From: Gammaproteobacteria bacterium
Lineage (GTDB): Bacteria > Pseudomonadota > Gammaproteobacteria > Eutrophobiales > Eutrophobiaceae
DNA: 64,000 bases
Assembly: GCA_965116495.1 (NCBI GenBank)
Contig: OZ220696.1
Span: 1,376,001 to 1,440,000 of the forward strand
Direction of reading: 5' to 3'
Notes under the pieces: generated by a model
Told to the model about the DNA's origin: nothing
Database searches by the model: none
What the model saw: the letters and a program-made list of their open reading frames with translations, nothing else
Shown: in pieces, positions 53,320-64,000 of the stretch
Numbering within the stretch: position 1 is the first letter of the stretch
Layout of the letters: every line of letters begins with the position of its first letter
Program-made: the position numbers and the translations under genes

Positions 53320-53586
53320 GTGACATGGACTGTTTACCTGACCAGAAAGGCGGATAAACAACTGGCAAAGTTGCCAAAAATGATGCGGGTTTTGGCAGAA
53401 CTTGCCGTGACTGACATGGAGGAGCAGGGTGTTAACCCTGTGGGATGGGATACTTTGAAAACCGGCAAAGATGAATATCGTCTGTGTCTGAATTACAGGT
53501 ATCGAATGCGTTATCGCGTAACGCCGGAACGTACCTTGAGGGTAGAAGTATTTTATATCGGACATCGACGGGAGGCTTATAGATGA
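53320..53586 (+). CDS. RelE/ParE-like toxin
   Basis: WTVYLTRKADKQLAKLP, YRMRY, VFYIGHRREAY. Confidence 0.8.
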   Translation: MTWTVYLTRKADKQLAKLPKMMRVLAELAVTDMEEQGVNPVGWDTLKTGKDEYRLCLNYRYRMRYRVTPERTLRVEVFYIGHRREAYR

Positions 53587-53954
53587 GTCATACATCGAAT
53601 ATTCAACACGATTTGAGAAAGGTGTCCGTGGGGCCTGCCGGAAAAACGGAACGAGTACCCCTGAAAAATATGACCAGCCCAAGCATAGAGAAATACTTGG
53701 AGGATGAGCTTGTACCCGCGCAAACGTTGCATGACGAAATCAGACAGCGCTATGGCGATGCTTATAGAACCCCGGGGTACTATCTGAGATTGTATCGCCT
53801 ACGGGCAGACTTGACCCAGGTACAACTGGCAGGCCAAGCAGGTATCCGCCAGCGCCACATCTCTGAGATGGAAAATAACAAACGGTCTATAGACAAAACG
53901 CTGGCCAGAAAGTTAGCGCATATTCTGGACTTCGATTACCGCAAGCTGATATAA
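53583..53954 (+). CDS. XRE-family HTH protein (putative antitoxin)
   Basis: LRLYRLRADLTQVQLAGQAGIRQRHISEMENNKR; ATGA overlap with the toxin gene. Confidence 0.85.
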   Translation: MSHTSNIQHDLRKVSVGPAGKTERVPLKNMTSPSIEKYLEDELVPAQTLHDEIRQRYGDAYRTPGYYLRLYRLRADLTQVQLAGQAGIRQRHISEMENNKRSIDKTLARKLAHILDFDYRKLI

Positions 53955-58355: not shown

Positions 58356-58859
58356 TTATTCCCCTGTCTTGTCCAGGTCTTTATTGATCCTGACAAGCTC
58401 CTGCATCAACCGGTCAATATCCGGGATCAATTTTTTCAGGGCATTCTGCTCTTTTGCCACCAGTTTTTTTGCGACCTCATGGCGTATCACTCCGGCATCC
58501 GACGGAAAGATCTCGATAATCCTCCGGTCCTCATGGTGTGGTTTTCTGTAGACAAGGTTGTCATTTACCATGCGGTCTATGAGTTTTGTGGCCGTCGGCA
58601 GGTTCAATACCATCGCTTCCGCAATCCCACCCATTGACCTGCTGCTTTCCGTAACCAGCATATTCAATACCAGCCACGCATCCAGACTCAGTCCCACAGT
58701 GCGTAACTTGGCGGTCAGCCGGTTGTTTACTTTACGACCGGTCCGGACCATCAGGCCGGCCAGATGATTGTCAATAATTCGTTTTCCCAAAAGACTTTCC
58801 CCGGTCCCATCAACGCATCTTATTGTACTCATGATACCTGAGCATGAGTGTCTTACCAA
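58356..58859 (-). CDS. MarR family transcriptional regulator (start uncertain)
   Basis: WLVLNML, LNLPTATKLIDRMVNDNLVYR..HHEDRR winged helix. Confidence 0.85.
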   Translation of the reverse strand: MVRHSCSGIMSTIRCVDGTGESLLGKRIIDNHLAGLMVRTGRKVNNRLTAKLRTVGLSLDAWLVLNMLVTESSRSMGGIAEAMVLNLPTATKLIDRMVNDNLVYRKPHHEDRRIIEIFPSDAGVIRHEVAKKLVAKEQNALKKLIPDIDRLMQELVRINKDLDKTGE

Positions 58860-58937: not shown

Positions 58938-61900
58938 TCAATGCGGGAGACACGGTCCATCTTCCCGCTTGGCTTCTTCCTCATAGTCTTTCGCCGCACG
59001 TCGAAGTGAAGCGGCGGTTTTTGGCCACTCCATCTCGCATTGATTCGCAAATCGATGATATTTCCCGGCAAGTTCATTTTCTCGTAACCCTTTCCCTTCA
59101 AAACGGACGCTGCCGTTTTTATTATATATCCCAACTCTAAATCCTCGGGCTAAAGCATCGCTGTCGAATTCATCGATAACGTCACGGACCGGATTACTCG
59201 GCCACTCATCTTTACCTTCCGGCTCCTGCGCCAGTACCTCGCCGATACGCTCATCACATACTTCCAGGTGACCTGATTCTTCACATTTTTCTCTGGCGAT
59301 CCTTACCCAATCCATAAGTTCCTGTTCATTGATCAGCCCATCGTTGTTCATGCCGGGTATCATCTTCCATTGAGTTAACAACACATACGCTTGATGCGCT
59401 CGTGCTTTGTCCCGCTCTGTGAAAGCTTGCCGGTTATCTTCCGGCTTTTTGTCCGAGTGAAAAACCGTCCGGATGAGTCGACAAAAGAATTCGGGGTCCT
59501 GTTGTAATGATTTTTCCAGTGTTACCGGAGATGATCCACTGTATTCATCCAGAAATTCAAGGTAGACCCACTCCAATTCAGTGAGTCTGATCGTATCTGT
59601 ATCAGAGCATCTTTCTTGTAGATATTTAAATAATTCCTGGATTTTGTATTTGATATCACTCTCTGTTACTTCTTCAAGGCTAATTTGAATTTGCCCCTTC
59701 CGTGCAGTTTCTAATGTCTCCAGTGTTTTGATAACCAGATCCGGGTCAATCTCGCATCCGTCATACAAAGCCATATTCAATATGTCAATGGCTTTAAGAG
59801 GATGTCCATAGTGGATTAATTTTGTTACCGCGAACTCAACGTCTTCTTTGCTGCCATCACGAACAAAGTCTCTAACGTGTCCCCAATAAACAGACCTGGC
59901 CTTAGAATTCTGTTTTTCTACCCATACCCAGGTTTCTCGTTTGAAGGGCAATACAGATAAAAACAATCCGGATTGTTCCGGTTGCCATGCCTTCAGGGGA
60001 AGTACTTCAACCCAATCCCAGTCTTTTTGCTCAAACAGTGCGCGGACGATACCAGCTGTAAATTCTTTCTCACGTTCATTATCCGAAGTCAGCAAAGCAG
60101 GAATGACGTCATCAGTATCGTTATAGAGTGCGCTACGCACATAACCATTGCCCACGATATCCGGACGACCGGATTCTTTGGCAAGCTTGAGAATTTCTTT
60201 TATTCCCCCATCCTCGTATATTTCCTGCAAAGCCTGAGCCCTGATTTGATAAATTGCTTCCTCTCGCTGTTGCGAGGACGTTCCAAGATTCATGTAGCCA
60301 TCGGGATAAGACGCAAATAACCAAAGGTGCCTGGCGACCAGATCAACGGGCTCGAAACGGTTTTGCAGGGTCTCCAGCCTGTTGGCAATATTTGGCGGTA
60401 TAGCTCTTTTTTTGTCTGATGCACGGGTTTTTATTACCTGTTTTCTTATGCTTTCCGTTATTTTTCTCCTGACTACCGTATCCAATTCTGTCAGGTCCCA
60501 CTGTTCCAGTCGATCAAACAGTTGTTTTTGTGTAGCTTGCGGGAGATGGTCAAACTCATTGAGCAACTGTAACCATCGTTCAATATCAGTTCCTGCCATG
60601 GAAATCAGATAACCTGCACAAGCGGATATCTGTTGCCAATACCCGTCGTGATCAGGTGTCTGCTCCCAAGCCAAAGACCAGTCCCGCCATACCGGCATAC
60701 GGGTATCTGATGACGTCCTTAACACATTCGGCATGAGGCTGAGCAATAATTCCCAGGCTGCTTTCGGGGTTTTTTCGACCAACTTTTTTATTGCTTTTAT
60801 TCTTTGTTCAACGGATGCCGTTGTGTGGGGATGCCAAGGCAGGAAAACCTGTTGCAGACTGGACAGGGGGCTGCTTGACCATTGCCCCTGCGAGCCGATC
60901 TCATATAAGCGTCCAAGAATTAAACTCACCTTAGTAAGGTAAGATGGATTCCAGGCCAGTACTTCTAGTGCGCCCAATATTCCTTCGTATGCAGAAAAGG
61001 CAACGGGTAAAGGAGCATCAGAATCGTTAAACAATTCTTTCAATACAGGACTCTCGCATTTGAGATCGTTTTCGACGGTTGACAAAAATACTTCGGGAGC
61101 CGCTTCTGCCAATTTGGGTAACAAGCCGGACAAAGAAGCCCATAGTTGCCAGGAAGTCTCCTCATTCAGAAGTCTACCCACTATTTGCTCAGCTTTTCCC
61201 TCGGGTTTGATGTCACTTTGCATCGTGCCGTTCCCAGACCTGCATGCCAACAGGACCAGCGTTTCACACATAGCCAAGCGGATCTGCGCGGAATATCTAA
61301 GTTCATTATCGTGGAACGCCGCATACGGCTGATCCTCTGCCGGCAGGTCATGTCTGATGTCCACTTCACCGAGAATTTCTACTGTCAGTTCCTCAAATGT
61401 GAGAAGGTCTTGTCGGGTTATATAGCATGCCAGTAACCGCCATGAATCTTCTCGCGATTCCAGGCTACAATGTTCATGTACACGTAAGAAAGGAGAGTCA
61501 GGTCTATTCAGCCAGAGGTTAACGATGTTTGCATTCTTTTCATACGATTTGCCGGATAATTTTTCAATAGCGCGTTGATCGGCATCGGATATTTCGTCCC
61601 AAGAGCCGACTAAAATAAAAGGTATTAATTCTCGAGCCCTGTCTGCTTCGCTCCATTCAGGATGTTTTGTAACAGGAAAGCGGGAAATAGAGCGTTTCAG
61701 CACGGTTAAACTTCCACCCGCCATGCGAGCGTAGTCAGATGCCACTTGCTCGGTAAGACCGGAGGTCAATAATGCTTTCTTCAACGCGTAACGATCAGGA
61801 CGCTGCAAATGAATTCGATCATATTTCGCGGAGAAGTGGTGATAGCAAAGCAGAACGTGATGACCCTGCTGCACGGCTTCTGTGATCATTGCTGCATCCA

Positions 61901-63038
61901 CGGGTAAATCCGGTTCAGGGATTAATAGTAACGAATTGGGGGATGCCGAGAGGTCTATCCACGCGTCCTTGTCCCGTATAATTAATGTTCTTGCCACCAT
62001 TTCATCTGCAAATTCACGAGGATCTACTTTCAACTCAAGGGTGGCTTCCTGGCTCCTGAAATACACGTGACAAGCAGAAATAAAATCAATTACGTCAACA
62101 GGAGAGGATGATTCAACAGCCAGTACGGAAGGTGCCGAACCCAACCATTCTGTAAACATATTTACTGCTTTATCACGTGATGTGAGGAACACGCTTGCAG
62201 GTAATGAAGGATTGGTCGAAGCGGATAGCTTTTCCCAATACCCCTCAAGATCAACAACTCCTTCCGGTTGGAGGCCAAGCATACGGGCAAGCCAGTTTTC
62301 GACACCTCTGGCAAACTCCAACCATTCCTCCTGGCTTTCGGAGTCGTATACCCTGACATCTTTCCAGATATTCAAGTTTTTCTTCTCCGAACACCATGTG
62401 TCTTTCCCTTGCCATCTTCGCGGTGTGACAAATATAAAGGTTGCCTGTTTTTTGTCCACTCCACATGAATTTTCAGTGCGTTTTCTGAAATCCTCCTCAG
62501 CCCTTCTACACGGCTGCCTATTGACACTCATTTCCCACACACTCAGTCCCGCAGGCACAAATTCATTGCCGCGGGCTGCCTCAATGAGCCCATCCCAACC
62601 CGGAATTTGCACGCATTCAAAGGCGGGAACTTGCACACGAATAAGGTTGTCTGAATCAACAGTACCGCGAACCAACCGTCGAACCAGGAGGGGGAAGATA
62701 GATTGCGCATCAATTCGGTCAGCCCACTGTTCCAACATTACAGATCTGACCCGGGTCGATATTCTTCTGCTGCGGGGAGGTTGGGGCAACCTGTCTACAC
62801 CTTCCTTTCGCGCTAGCCCGAACAGTGTTTGCCGTTCAGTGGATTCAGGCTCCATTTTAAGCGCCTTTGCGTACGATTCCAGGAGCGTTGCAGATCTTGG
62901 CGGGGCGAGAATATTCCGTTCAAGTTTGCTGATGTTGCCCTGATCAAATCCATTTCGGCGCGAGAATTCACGCAGGGACAAGCCCAACGCCTTACGGCGC
63001 TGCCGGAAATAGTCACCAAAGCGTATTGAAGAAGACAT
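58938..63038 (-). CDS. 1366-aa protein: XRE HTH + putative PD-(D/E)xK-like nuclease + degenerate STAND-like NTPase + long helical region; candidate anti-phage protein
   Basis: FRQRRKALGLSLREFS...NISKLER; PGWDG...WEMS; ARMAGGSLTVLKR; lower GC than the backbone. Confidence 0.7.
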   Translation of the reverse strand: MSSSIRFGDYFRQRRKALGLSLREFSRRNGFDQGNISKLERNILAPPRSATLLESYAKALKMEPESTERQTLFGLARKEGVDRLPQPPRSRRISTRVRSVMLEQWADRIDAQSIFPLLVRRLVRGTVDSDNLIRVQVPAFECVQIPGWDGLIEAARGNEFVPAGLSVWEMSVNRQPCRRAEEDFRKRTENSCGVDKKQATFIFVTPRRWQGKDTWCSEKKNLNIWKDVRVYDSESQEEWLEFARGVENWLARMLGLQPEGVVDLEGYWEKLSASTNPSLPASVFLTSRDKAVNMFTEWLGSAPSVLAVESSSPVDVIDFISACHVYFRSQEATLELKVDPREFADEMVARTLIIRDKDAWIDLSASPNSLLLIPEPDLPVDAAMITEAVQQGHHVLLCYHHFSAKYDRIHLQRPDRYALKKALLTSGLTEQVASDYARMAGGSLTVLKRSISRFPVTKHPEWSEADRARELIPFILVGSWDEISDADQRAIEKLSGKSYEKNANIVNLWLNRPDSPFLRVHEHCSLESREDSWRLLACYITRQDLLTFEELTVEILGEVDIRHDLPAEDQPYAAFHDNELRYSAQIRLAMCETLVLLACRSGNGTMQSDIKPEGKAEQIVGRLLNEETSWQLWASLSGLLPKLAEAAPEVFLSTVENDLKCESPVLKELFNDSDAPLPVAFSAYEGILGALEVLAWNPSYLTKVSLILGRLYEIGSQGQWSSSPLSSLQQVFLPWHPHTTASVEQRIKAIKKLVEKTPKAAWELLLSLMPNVLRTSSDTRMPVWRDWSLAWEQTPDHDGYWQQISACAGYLISMAGTDIERWLQLLNEFDHLPQATQKQLFDRLEQWDLTELDTVVRRKITESIRKQVIKTRASDKKRAIPPNIANRLETLQNRFEPVDLVARHLWLFASYPDGYMNLGTSSQQREEAIYQIRAQALQEIYEDGGIKEILKLAKESGRPDIVGNGYVRSALYNDTDDVIPALLTSDNEREKEFTAGIVRALFEQKDWDWVEVLPLKAWQPEQSGLFLSVLPFKRETWVWVEKQNSKARSVYWGHVRDFVRDGSKEDVEFAVTKLIHYGHPLKAIDILNMALYDGCEIDPDLVIKTLETLETARKGQIQISLEEVTESDIKYKIQELFKYLQERCSDTDTIRLTELEWVYLEFLDEYSGSSPVTLEKSLQQDPEFFCRLIRTVFHSDKKPEDNRQAFTERDKARAHQAYVLLTQWKMIPGMNNDGLINEQELMDWVRIAREKCEESGHLEVCDERIGEVLAQEPEGKDEWPSNPVRDVIDEFDSDALARGFRVGIYNKNGSVRFEGKGLRENELAGKYHRFANQCEMEWPKTAASLRRAAKDYEEEAKREDGPCLPH

Positions 63039-63056
63039 ACTAATAAAGTATATTAG

Positions 63057-63112
63057 TTGTAATTATTTTACAAATTTTCAATATGAAAAAATTATTTGTT
63101 TATTTTTTACAA
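63057..63112. promoter_or_regulatory. Two TTGT-N9-ACAA palindromes in an extremely AT-rich divergent spacer; candidate operators
   Basis: TTGTAATTATTTTACAA (63057..63073) and TTGTTTATTTTTTACAA (63096..63112). Confidence 0.45.
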
Positions 63113-63237
63113 CATAAAAGTTTTTTTATTTAACTACCTAAATATTCTATATATATTATATAAACTCATATATTTGTTAATTATAATATTTTTAGTTAAT
63201 TTCTTTATAAAGGATTTACTTAAAATAGATTAATATT

Positions 63238-64000
63238 ATGTTTTTTTATTATTTTGGTCCGCTGGAATTCAGGTTCTTCAGCTATATCCAGGCTCGCAAG
63301 ATGCAATCTGTCGAAATCGGCAAAATCGGGTTGGAACTGGGATTAACCCCTGTCCAGGAACGTAAACTGCTGAGTCGACTATCCCGCCGGGGGCTCATTA
63401 CCAGGGTAAGACGGGGCCTGTATCTTGTGCCTCCAACCATTCCACCCGGAGGGAAGTGGAGCCCCGGTGAAGCACTGGCATTATCCACTCTGATGATGGA
63501 CAAAAAAGGCCAATACCAGTTATGTGGGCCCAATGCCTTTTATCGGTACAGGTGGACTGATCAAGTTCCGAACCGGTTATATGTTTATAATAATCGCTTG
63601 TCAGGTACCCGAAAAATCGGGCCTGTAACCTTAACATTGATTAAGGTTTATGATGAGCGCCTCGGATCTACGGAAACTGTAACTACCCCTGAGGGAATTG
63701 TTTTAAATTACTCCAGCAAAGCACGTGCACTAATGGATGCTGTCTATGATTGGTCAAGATTCAACACTCTCCCACGTGCTTATGATTGGATATCACAGGA
63801 AATTGATAAAGACGATGCCCTACCGGCAGATTTGGTGGACGTTTGTATCAGTTACGGGAATCAAAGCACGCTACGCCGTATAGGAAAATTACTTGCTGAG
63901 GAAGCAGTGAACGAGCCTTTATTGAGAAAATTGACAAAACGGATAAAACCATCTTCCAGCTTGATCCCCTGGATACCATCTAAACCGAAAAAAGGACAAA
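63238..64000 (+). CDS. Type IV TA AbiEi-family antitoxin / transcriptional regulator, 3'-truncated (absent from the ORF track)
   Basis: Frame open to the window end: LSRLSRRGLITRVRRGLYLVP, AFYRYRWTDQVPNRLYVYN, SSKARALMDAVYD, TLRRIGKLL. Confidence 0.8.
   Translation, partial: MFFYYFGPLEFRFFSYIQARKMQSVEIGKIGLELGLTPVQERKLLSRLSRRGLITRVRRGLYLVPPTIPPGGKWSPGEALALSTLMMDKKGQYQLCGPNAFYRYRWTDQVPNRLYVYNNRLSGTRKIGPVTLTLIKVYDERLGSTETVTTPEGIVLNYSSKARALMDAVYDWSRFNTLPRAYDWISQEIDKDDALPADLVDVCISYGNQSTLRRIGKLLAEEAVNEPLLRKLTKRIKPSSSLIPWIPSKPKKGQ

Follow-up and report, generated by a model that had tools for sequence, protein, structure and literature searches.

In a 64,000-nucleotide stretch of a Gammaproteobacteria bacterium genome (contig OZ220696.1, positions 1,376,001 to 1,440,000 of the forward strand; the window), we found a gene for a 1366-aa protein that is probably a one-protein phage sensor and DNase. 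Its sequence points to a distant homolog of Avs8A without ATP-binding motifs, which would repress its own promoter through an N-terminal helix-turn-helix (HTH) domain. The family formed by this protein and its homologs is very likely one of anti-phage sensor-nucleases. The protein and its gene are hereafter called the giant protein and the giant gene, and the strain carrying the window the own strain.

Domain architecture and relationship to Avs8A

The giant gene and its parts were located as follows.
58938..63038, minus strand: giant gene, a 1366-aa open reading frame (ORF) for an HTH-nuclease-pseudo-STAND-solenoid protein (Avs8-like)
62835..63023, minus strand: XRE HTH, residues 6-68, the likely autorepressor (Pfam HTH_31 at E 6.9e-6, slightly below the cut-off; co-occurrence with the boxes described below)
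62274..62756, minus strand: Mrr-like PD-(D/E)xK nuclease fold, residues ~95-255 (VIA fold matches and conservation)
62502..62504, minus strand: AGG (Arg) at codon 179, where 261 of 264 distinct family rows have Lys
61809..62261, minus strand: nucleotide-binding fold of the AAA+/STAND kind, lacking Walker A and Walker B, residues ~260-410
61419..61808, minus strand: STAND module, helical domain 1 plus winged helix, residues ~411-540 (boundaries approximate; secondary structure and Foldseek)
58941..61418, minus strand: all-helical solenoid, residues 541-1366, likely helical domain 2 and sensor (AlphaFold2 and profile matches)

The original prediction had described this ORF with an XRE HTH, a GWDG...WE segment and a Walker-less loop, and each was present where it had been placed (GWDG, residues 147-150; WE, 168-169; VLAVESSSPVDVID, 305-318). 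The nuclease and STAND folds proposed at the same time were supported by structural modeling. The AlphaFold2 model of residues 95-760 had a predicted local distance difference test (pLDDT) value of 93.1, and its first ~160 residues matched PD-(D/E)xK nucleases by VIA, namely AF1548 (1y88; Z 9.8, root-mean-square deviation 2.5, 110 aligned), FokI (Z 8.9), and MspJI (Z 8.7). The structure 1y88 has been placed in the Mrr group (PMC3424549). The next part of the model matched AAA+/STAND folds by VIA with modest Z values (ClpC1, 9.0; a plant NLR, 8.0). When residues 95-760 were searched with Foldseek, the top ranks were Avs3 (E 1.8e-9), Avs5, SAMD9, Avs4, and Apaf-1. In the model, a fold made up of an NBD (the nucleotide-binding domain), helical domain 1, and a WHD (the winged-helix domain) is predicted to sit between the N-terminal effector and the C-terminal helical sensor, as in STAND/Avs proteins. 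The long helical tail noticed earlier was modeled as an all-helical solenoid (residues 541-1366; pLDDT 91.2), for which the fold search returned generic HEAT-repeat solenoids only. Sequence searches of NCBIfam and the PDB with the giant protein gave only HTH-level or chance matches, and a search of the ESM Atlas returned only its own HTH-labelled clusters.

The missing Walker A of the original prediction was borne out, and the loss extends beyond this protein. The giant protein has ESSSP at the P-loop position, where the family has [AS]DS or similar. A regex scan found the P-loop GK[ST] in 0 of 264 family rows (the single regex match falls ahead of the strand), and no conserved acidic residue was seen after the Walker B strand in the family alignment. 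In contrast, Walker A was present in 118 of 120 canonical PD-lambda-4A proteins. As judged from the alignment, the loss of Walker A and B holds across the whole family.

Subsequently, the relationship to known systems was examined using PD-lambda-4A family genes taken from 12 of 401 genomes (L007 among them, with 1129 bits on the PADLOC model) as stand-ins for EcAvs8. The PADLOC model PD-Lambda-4_A matched the giant protein weakly (E 0.015) and 9 of 26 tested homologs at E<=0.01 (best, 4.9e-9). When 114 family rows were compared with 5 PD-lambda-4A-family rows by hhalign, a colinear match over 1139 columns was obtained (99.6%, E 1e-23, 13% identity). With a deeper PD-lambda-4A alignment, the segment profile matches were 90% for the nuclease, 97% for residues 545-800, and 75% for residues 800-1100. 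By these profiles, Avs8A/PD-lambda-4A appears to be a distant homolog with the same order of parts; the earlier statement that the giant protein could not be assigned to a named system was not supported. Most likely, it works like Avs8 without being filed as a canonical Avs8.

Avs8A is reported to bind a phage capsid protein and then to become a DNase (10.1101/2025.07.02.662641). By analogy, a capsid protein is the trigger that we favor here, with somewhat better than even confidence. Less plausibly, the solenoid senses a non-capsid phage protein by the same sensor-nuclease logic, and the family would be a separate Avs family instead of an Avs8 branch. The C-terminal 266 residues without a PD-lambda-4A profile match, the 75% of residues 800-1100, and the remark of Lee et al. 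that sensor types may cross several NTPase clades favor such a separation. It is opposed by the whole-length colinear match, which reaches its highest value (97%) in the helical region after the WHD, and by KpAvs8, the only degenerate-motif Avs mentioned in the available text, which is a capsid sensor.

The nuclease residues were strongly conserved: in 264 distinct rows, D149 was kept in 264, E169 in 263, K179 in 261, and D183 in 259. Position 171, the canonical place of the lysine, was G, S, or T in every row (S171 in the giant protein). This variant site, D-ExG/S-K, does not match the QxK motif of canonical Avs8, which is Q78/K80 in EcAvs8 (Lee et al., PMC13581612). From the conservation, we infer a PD-EXX-K site with the lysine shifted to the next helix; such a shift has already been described for Pa4535 (PMC3424549).

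The nuclease reading of the GWDG...WE segment stood, but the original prediction had overlooked an Arg at the near-invariant Lys179. The giant protein is the sole Arg row among the 264, and relatives at 87-89% identity have Lys. Sequencing runs X1 and X3, both of which may be the source of the own genome, confirmed the Arg codon, and a related strain (run X6) carries the Lys codon. Because a near-invariant Lys is replaced, the nuclease of this copy is perhaps weakened. It is conceivable, if not the case we would bet on, that this copy is a weakened or dead allele keeping repressor or sensor activity only, which is compatible with our explanation of the family. The rarity of Arg179 and the Lys codon of the related strain speak for such an allele, and the intact ORF, the retained D149, E169, and D183, and the conservative nature of Lys-to-Arg speak against it; moreover, a catalytic role of residue 179 is only inferred.

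Operator-like palindromes upstream of the giant gene

The region upstream of the giant gene contains the following features.
63056..63074: proximal operator-like palindrome, containing the -10 hexamer in relatives
63095..63113: distal operator-like palindrome, just upstream of a TTGAC[AT]-type -35 in relatives
63238..64000, plus strand: abiEi (268 aa), running past the window end; Pfam AbiEi_4 over cut-off

The two TTGT-N9-ACAA palindromes of the original prediction were confirmed as boxes at 63057-63073 and 63096-63112, 39 bp apart. They are the sole pair within 100 bp among 50 such sites in the 4.34-Mb genome. Among intergenic shuffles, two copies of this motif occurred in 1e-5, and 0.6% had some repeated 4+k+4 palindrome with G/C in it. 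We counted operators in the 156 loci whose sequence extended 500 nt or more upstream of the nuclease domain; kin among them share features, and the counts are not independent. TTGT-N9-ACAA was observed in 10 of 10 loci with this XRE subtype (the own locus and G001 included) versus 0 of 146 others. The aligned consensus consisted of two boxes of the GTTGTA-N7-TACAAC type, in most loci at a distance of 38-39 bp; the first box was decayed in several loci, and the spacing differed in L052. In relatives, a TTGAC[AT]-type -35 directly follows the first box and a TATAAT/TACAAT-type -10 lies inside the second. A sigma-70 scan of the AT-rich spacer gave only matches at 9 of 12 positions.

A different palindrome, GTGT-N6-ACAC, was found in the HigA-type clade (33 of 54 loci; shuffle maximum 4). 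When TTGT-N9-ACAA and GYGT-N6-ACRC were cross-tabulated, they occurred in 9/9 and 0/9 loci of this subtype, 0 and 40/54 of the HigA type, 0 and 0/33 without an N-terminal domain, 0 and 0/8 with the E. coli-type HTH, and 0 and 11/43 unclassified. In these counts, motif and HTH type change together and vanish together. The idea of self-regulation in the original prediction stands, as the boxes follow the protein's own HTH subtype, and with high confidence we propose that the HTH represses the giant gene's own promoter. A tree of 125 cores did not cleanly resolve the HTH classes (19 label changes), and hence no order of HTH swaps is claimed.

AbiEi antitoxins autoregulate through inverted repeats in their own promoters (PMC7319586), and a divergent abiEi adjoins 7 of the 10 box loci, probably 8 with a contig-cut case. 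That the palindromes are AbiEi operators is nevertheless very unlikely: L028 and L052 (the latter with only 655 nt upstream) keep the box without an adjacent abiE, the box is missing from two close abiE loci that have no giant gene (G003 and G663), and the palindrome motif changes as the HTH type changes. Furthermore, the boxes lie on the giant gene's own -35/-10, and since they straddle this promoter in relatives, self-repression would be expected rather than AbiEi binding.

Two further observations concern the boxes and the HTH. A single strong operator-matrix match, unpaired and possibly due to chance or to another regulator, lies just upstream of a TonB-receptor-like gene (G000:C1:637289-637307). 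Canonical PD-lambda-4A-like genes at L011 1495-5523 and L015 544-4623 bear N-terminal HTH-like extensions, so that HTH fusion is found beyond the degenerate family.

Family distribution and genomic neighborhood

The homolog search yielded 162 proteins from 7995 scored candidates; the 120 homologs listed had 26-89% identity, and nearly all covered the whole region. Matches to the giant protein were found in 4 of 41 related genomes (own included), 24 plasmids, 327 GTDB stretches, and at least 526 metagenome stretches; 80 of each of the latter two were kept. An N-terminal domain was missing in 60 of 253 members. Many homologs are labelled in databases as HigA antitoxin or XRE/HTH regulator. We rejected an identity as HigA antitoxin on the length of 1366 aa and on a rough scan of small upstream ORFs, which gave 0 HigB-motif matches. 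Because of these labels and of scores far under the PD-lambda-4A model, defence annotation probably overlooks the family. Our literature search found no account of this degenerate-Walker family or of its E. coli member accessions, and no mention of family-wide motif loss, the shifted nuclease lysine, HTH-operator pairing, or AbiE linkage.

The E. coli member WP_022645558.1 (29% identity over residues 15-1360) was present in 82 of 5426 E. coli genomes and, in one inspected record, lay inside an element with an integrase and radC. Its divergent neighbor is WP_022645559.1, a hypothetical protein of 1727 aa with a weak PADLOC match to PDC-M54A, and the E. coli member is followed by a helicase (L184 6425-11608 / L044 389-5569); two large sensors thus stand back to back. 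In Rhizobium plasmid matches (H2/H57 and H3/H56), the direct neighbor of the degenerate gene is a canonical PD-lambda-4A-like match, partial and of the same strand. A 1179-aa relative at L006 1471-5007 (G002, minus strand), without a PADLOC match, corresponds to residues 469-1358 only and has a different N-terminal domain, which suggests swapping of effector and NBD onto the same tail.

The giant gene lies in a short low-GC island flanked by a host gene.
58356..58859, minus strand: marR, host gene flanking the island

The GC content was 0.473 for the giant gene, 0.121 for the intergenic region, 0.452 for abiEi, and 0.391 for abiEii, compared with a genome value of 0.547; among genome windows of 4.1 kb, 3.7% were as low as the giant gene. 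The GC drop after marR suggested by the original prediction was confirmed, but the low-GC part spans only ~6 kb, and marR itself (GC 0.49) belongs to the host. The latter assignment was made because marR also follows the upstream ABC permease in 4 of 14 relatives with a resolved downstream gene (8 of 23 loci were unresolved). The insertion site varies, since G001 has the giant gene and abiE without marR and G003 has abiE alone. No integrase was seen in the island's ORF list.

The divergent AbiEi-like ORF was confirmed from 63238 by its Pfam match and by PADLOC (7e-21 for the full 268 aa). Downstream of it in the genome are abiEii (301 aa), a 1726-aa RecQ-UvrD fusion gene, an Xre-MbcA/RES pair, and then a VanA-like Rieske gene. 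The overlapping abiEi and abiEii ORFs, both over the Pfam cut-off (AbiEi_4 and AbiEii), form a complete pair. abiE is usually linked to this HTH subtype and was absent beside the other subtypes except for one weak AbiEii match. In principle, the giant protein could be a phage-sensing transcription factor whose capsid-induced oligomerisation frees or activates the shared divergent promoter, with AbiEii as the real killer; the divergent abiE pair conserved beside most loci of this HTH subtype (upstream regions of GC 31-57%) and the Arg179 of this copy agree with it, but the near-invariant nuclease residues (264 rows), the members without an N-terminal domain, and the absence of abiE beside other subtypes make it very unlikely.

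Several neighboring genes were also recorded. The RecQ-UvrD fusion gene (G000:C1:1441314-1446494; L001 7315-12495, minus strand), which lies beyond the low-GC stretch (GC 0.563), possibly encodes an uncharacterised defence helicase; in G001 (L202) the fusion is broken up into two ORFs, and in G009 (L221) comparable UvrD ends occur close to the same permease. Two AbiE-like operons stand in tandem upstream of the giant gene at L027 1092-5802. Elsewhere in the window, a GC dip between xseA and lipA (53320-53954) contains an HTH ORF and a small ORF resembling RelE, both labelled by reading of the sequence, which are probably a type II toxin-antitoxin pair. In the family as a whole, the commonest neighbors in a scan of 44 proteins were type I HsdR, HsdM, and HsdS, integrase, type III restriction-modification (R-M), AbiJ-like, PIN, Fic, and TIR proteins.

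Proposed mechanism and comparison with known systems

We propose the following mechanism for the preferred reading, an Avs8-like sensor-nuclease. At rest, the HTH would occupy the two palindromes over the promoter and keep the toxic protein scarce. The monomer would be held closed by its solenoid until the latter takes hold of a structural protein of the phage, which, as in Avs8, is most likely a major capsid protein of the HK97 fold. Ligand binding alone, without ADP/ATP exchange, would then be enough for oligomerisation of the pseudo-STAND domains, the probable product being a tetramer. The Mrr-like domains would thereby be clustered, with a site made of D149, E169, and the lysine displaced onto the following helix (179); the DNA would be cut and the infected cell would die. 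In the own strain, Arg179 may weaken the cutting step. When residues 630-1361 were modeled in complex with a prophage capsid protein of PF09950 (residues 100-367), a stand-in from another genome, no answer was obtained. Capsid genes of three Pfam families were not found in the own genome, PF09950 had no match in 23 genus genomes (nor did the control), and a viral-contig scan with the stand-in confirmed nothing.

Several points weigh against this proposal. The Foldseek TM-scores to Avs structures were low (0.22-0.29 by query length), the identity to canonical Avs8A was only 13%, the NBD-WHD segment alone matched at 5%, and residues 1100-1366 (the last 266) gave no profile match; for these reasons, the ligand may differ from that of Avs8. 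KpAvs8 is at most a candidate member of the degenerate family. No PD-lambda-4B/Avs8B-like partner was seen, the flanks being marR and abiE, and no Avs8B profile search was run. The -35 of the relatives is decayed in the own strain and in G001, and the nuclease of this copy may be weakened. Finally, the check for a defence neighborhood called for by the original prediction supported such a context, with R-M genes in 26 of 84 loci of at least 12 kb (19 of 66 GTDB loci) versus 6.8% of random windows of the own genome, but this comparison has its limits: a single control genome was used, the R-M clusters were built from these very loci, one E. coli element accounts for three loci, kin are not independent, and the HsdR cluster may include other helicases.

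The usual teaching is that STAND/NLR receptors act as ADP/ATP switches. With an entire family that has the STAND fold minus its motifs, activation by ligand binding alone could be tested directly; a figure legend of Lee et al. (PMC13581612) hints at ATP-free activation for one protein, KpAvs8. The predicted operators offer a handle on the way in which an immune receptor that is lethal and encoded by a single gene restrains its own amount, and experiments are made easy by the E. coli member. More speculatively, we may be looking at a widespread NLR-like receptor family that discarded nucleotide switching, rebuilt its nuclease with a migrated lysine, and swapped cassettes of HTH plus operator, by which every receptor would control its own expression. 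In the one clade that is also coupled to divergent AbiE, the sensing of a phage could lead to DNA cutting and, at the same time, to altered transcription from the shared promoter. Much of the novelty is removed, however, because of the Avs8A homology and because a degenerate-motif KpAvs8 is already in print.

Among known systems, Avs8A/PD-lambda-4A (E. coli ECOR07, WP_000963924.1) is similar in having an Mrr-like nuclease, a STAND module, and a helical tail of similar length in colinear order. The canonical proteins have GxxGxGK[ST] (118/120), the Walker B aspartate, and QxK (114/120), whereas the degenerate family has D-ExG/S-K and no Walker motifs; the giant protein further differs from Avs8A in its HTH with operator-like boxes. 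A blastn search of E. coli genomes with a canonical Avs8-like gene gave no match. KpAvs8 of Klebsiella is described as having degenerate Walker motifs, suggesting no ATPase activity (PMC13581612, legend to Extended Data Fig. 11; bioRxiv 10.64898/2026.01.04.697583), yet it is triggered by T1-like capsid proteins. In PMC13581612, its triggers were 3 of 23 capsid rows (ZL19, Pal001, and Sa179lw) versus 8 of 23 below 0.01 for EcAvs8, and two further rows give T1 and Pal008. The description used contains no HTH, operator, or nuclease motif for KpAvs8.

The other comparisons are more distant. Avs3, Avs4, and Avs5 retain Walker motifs. They share the effector-STAND-sensor layout and were the top structural matches for residues 95-760 (PDB 8dgc, 8dgf, and 9jap) but sense other ligands, and their TM-scores to the giant protein were low. 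For Avs2, a Walker A mutant is described as having lost defence. The AbiE type IV toxin-antitoxin is a separate known system, of which the neighboring pair is a complete example. Upx was absent from the PADLOC matches listed for the giant protein. As described in PMC13601566, it resembles the giant protein in combining a PD-(D/E)xK nuclease with a large sensor acting without a STAND ATPase; it senses terminase and has no STAND domain at all, whereas the giant protein retains the STAND fold.

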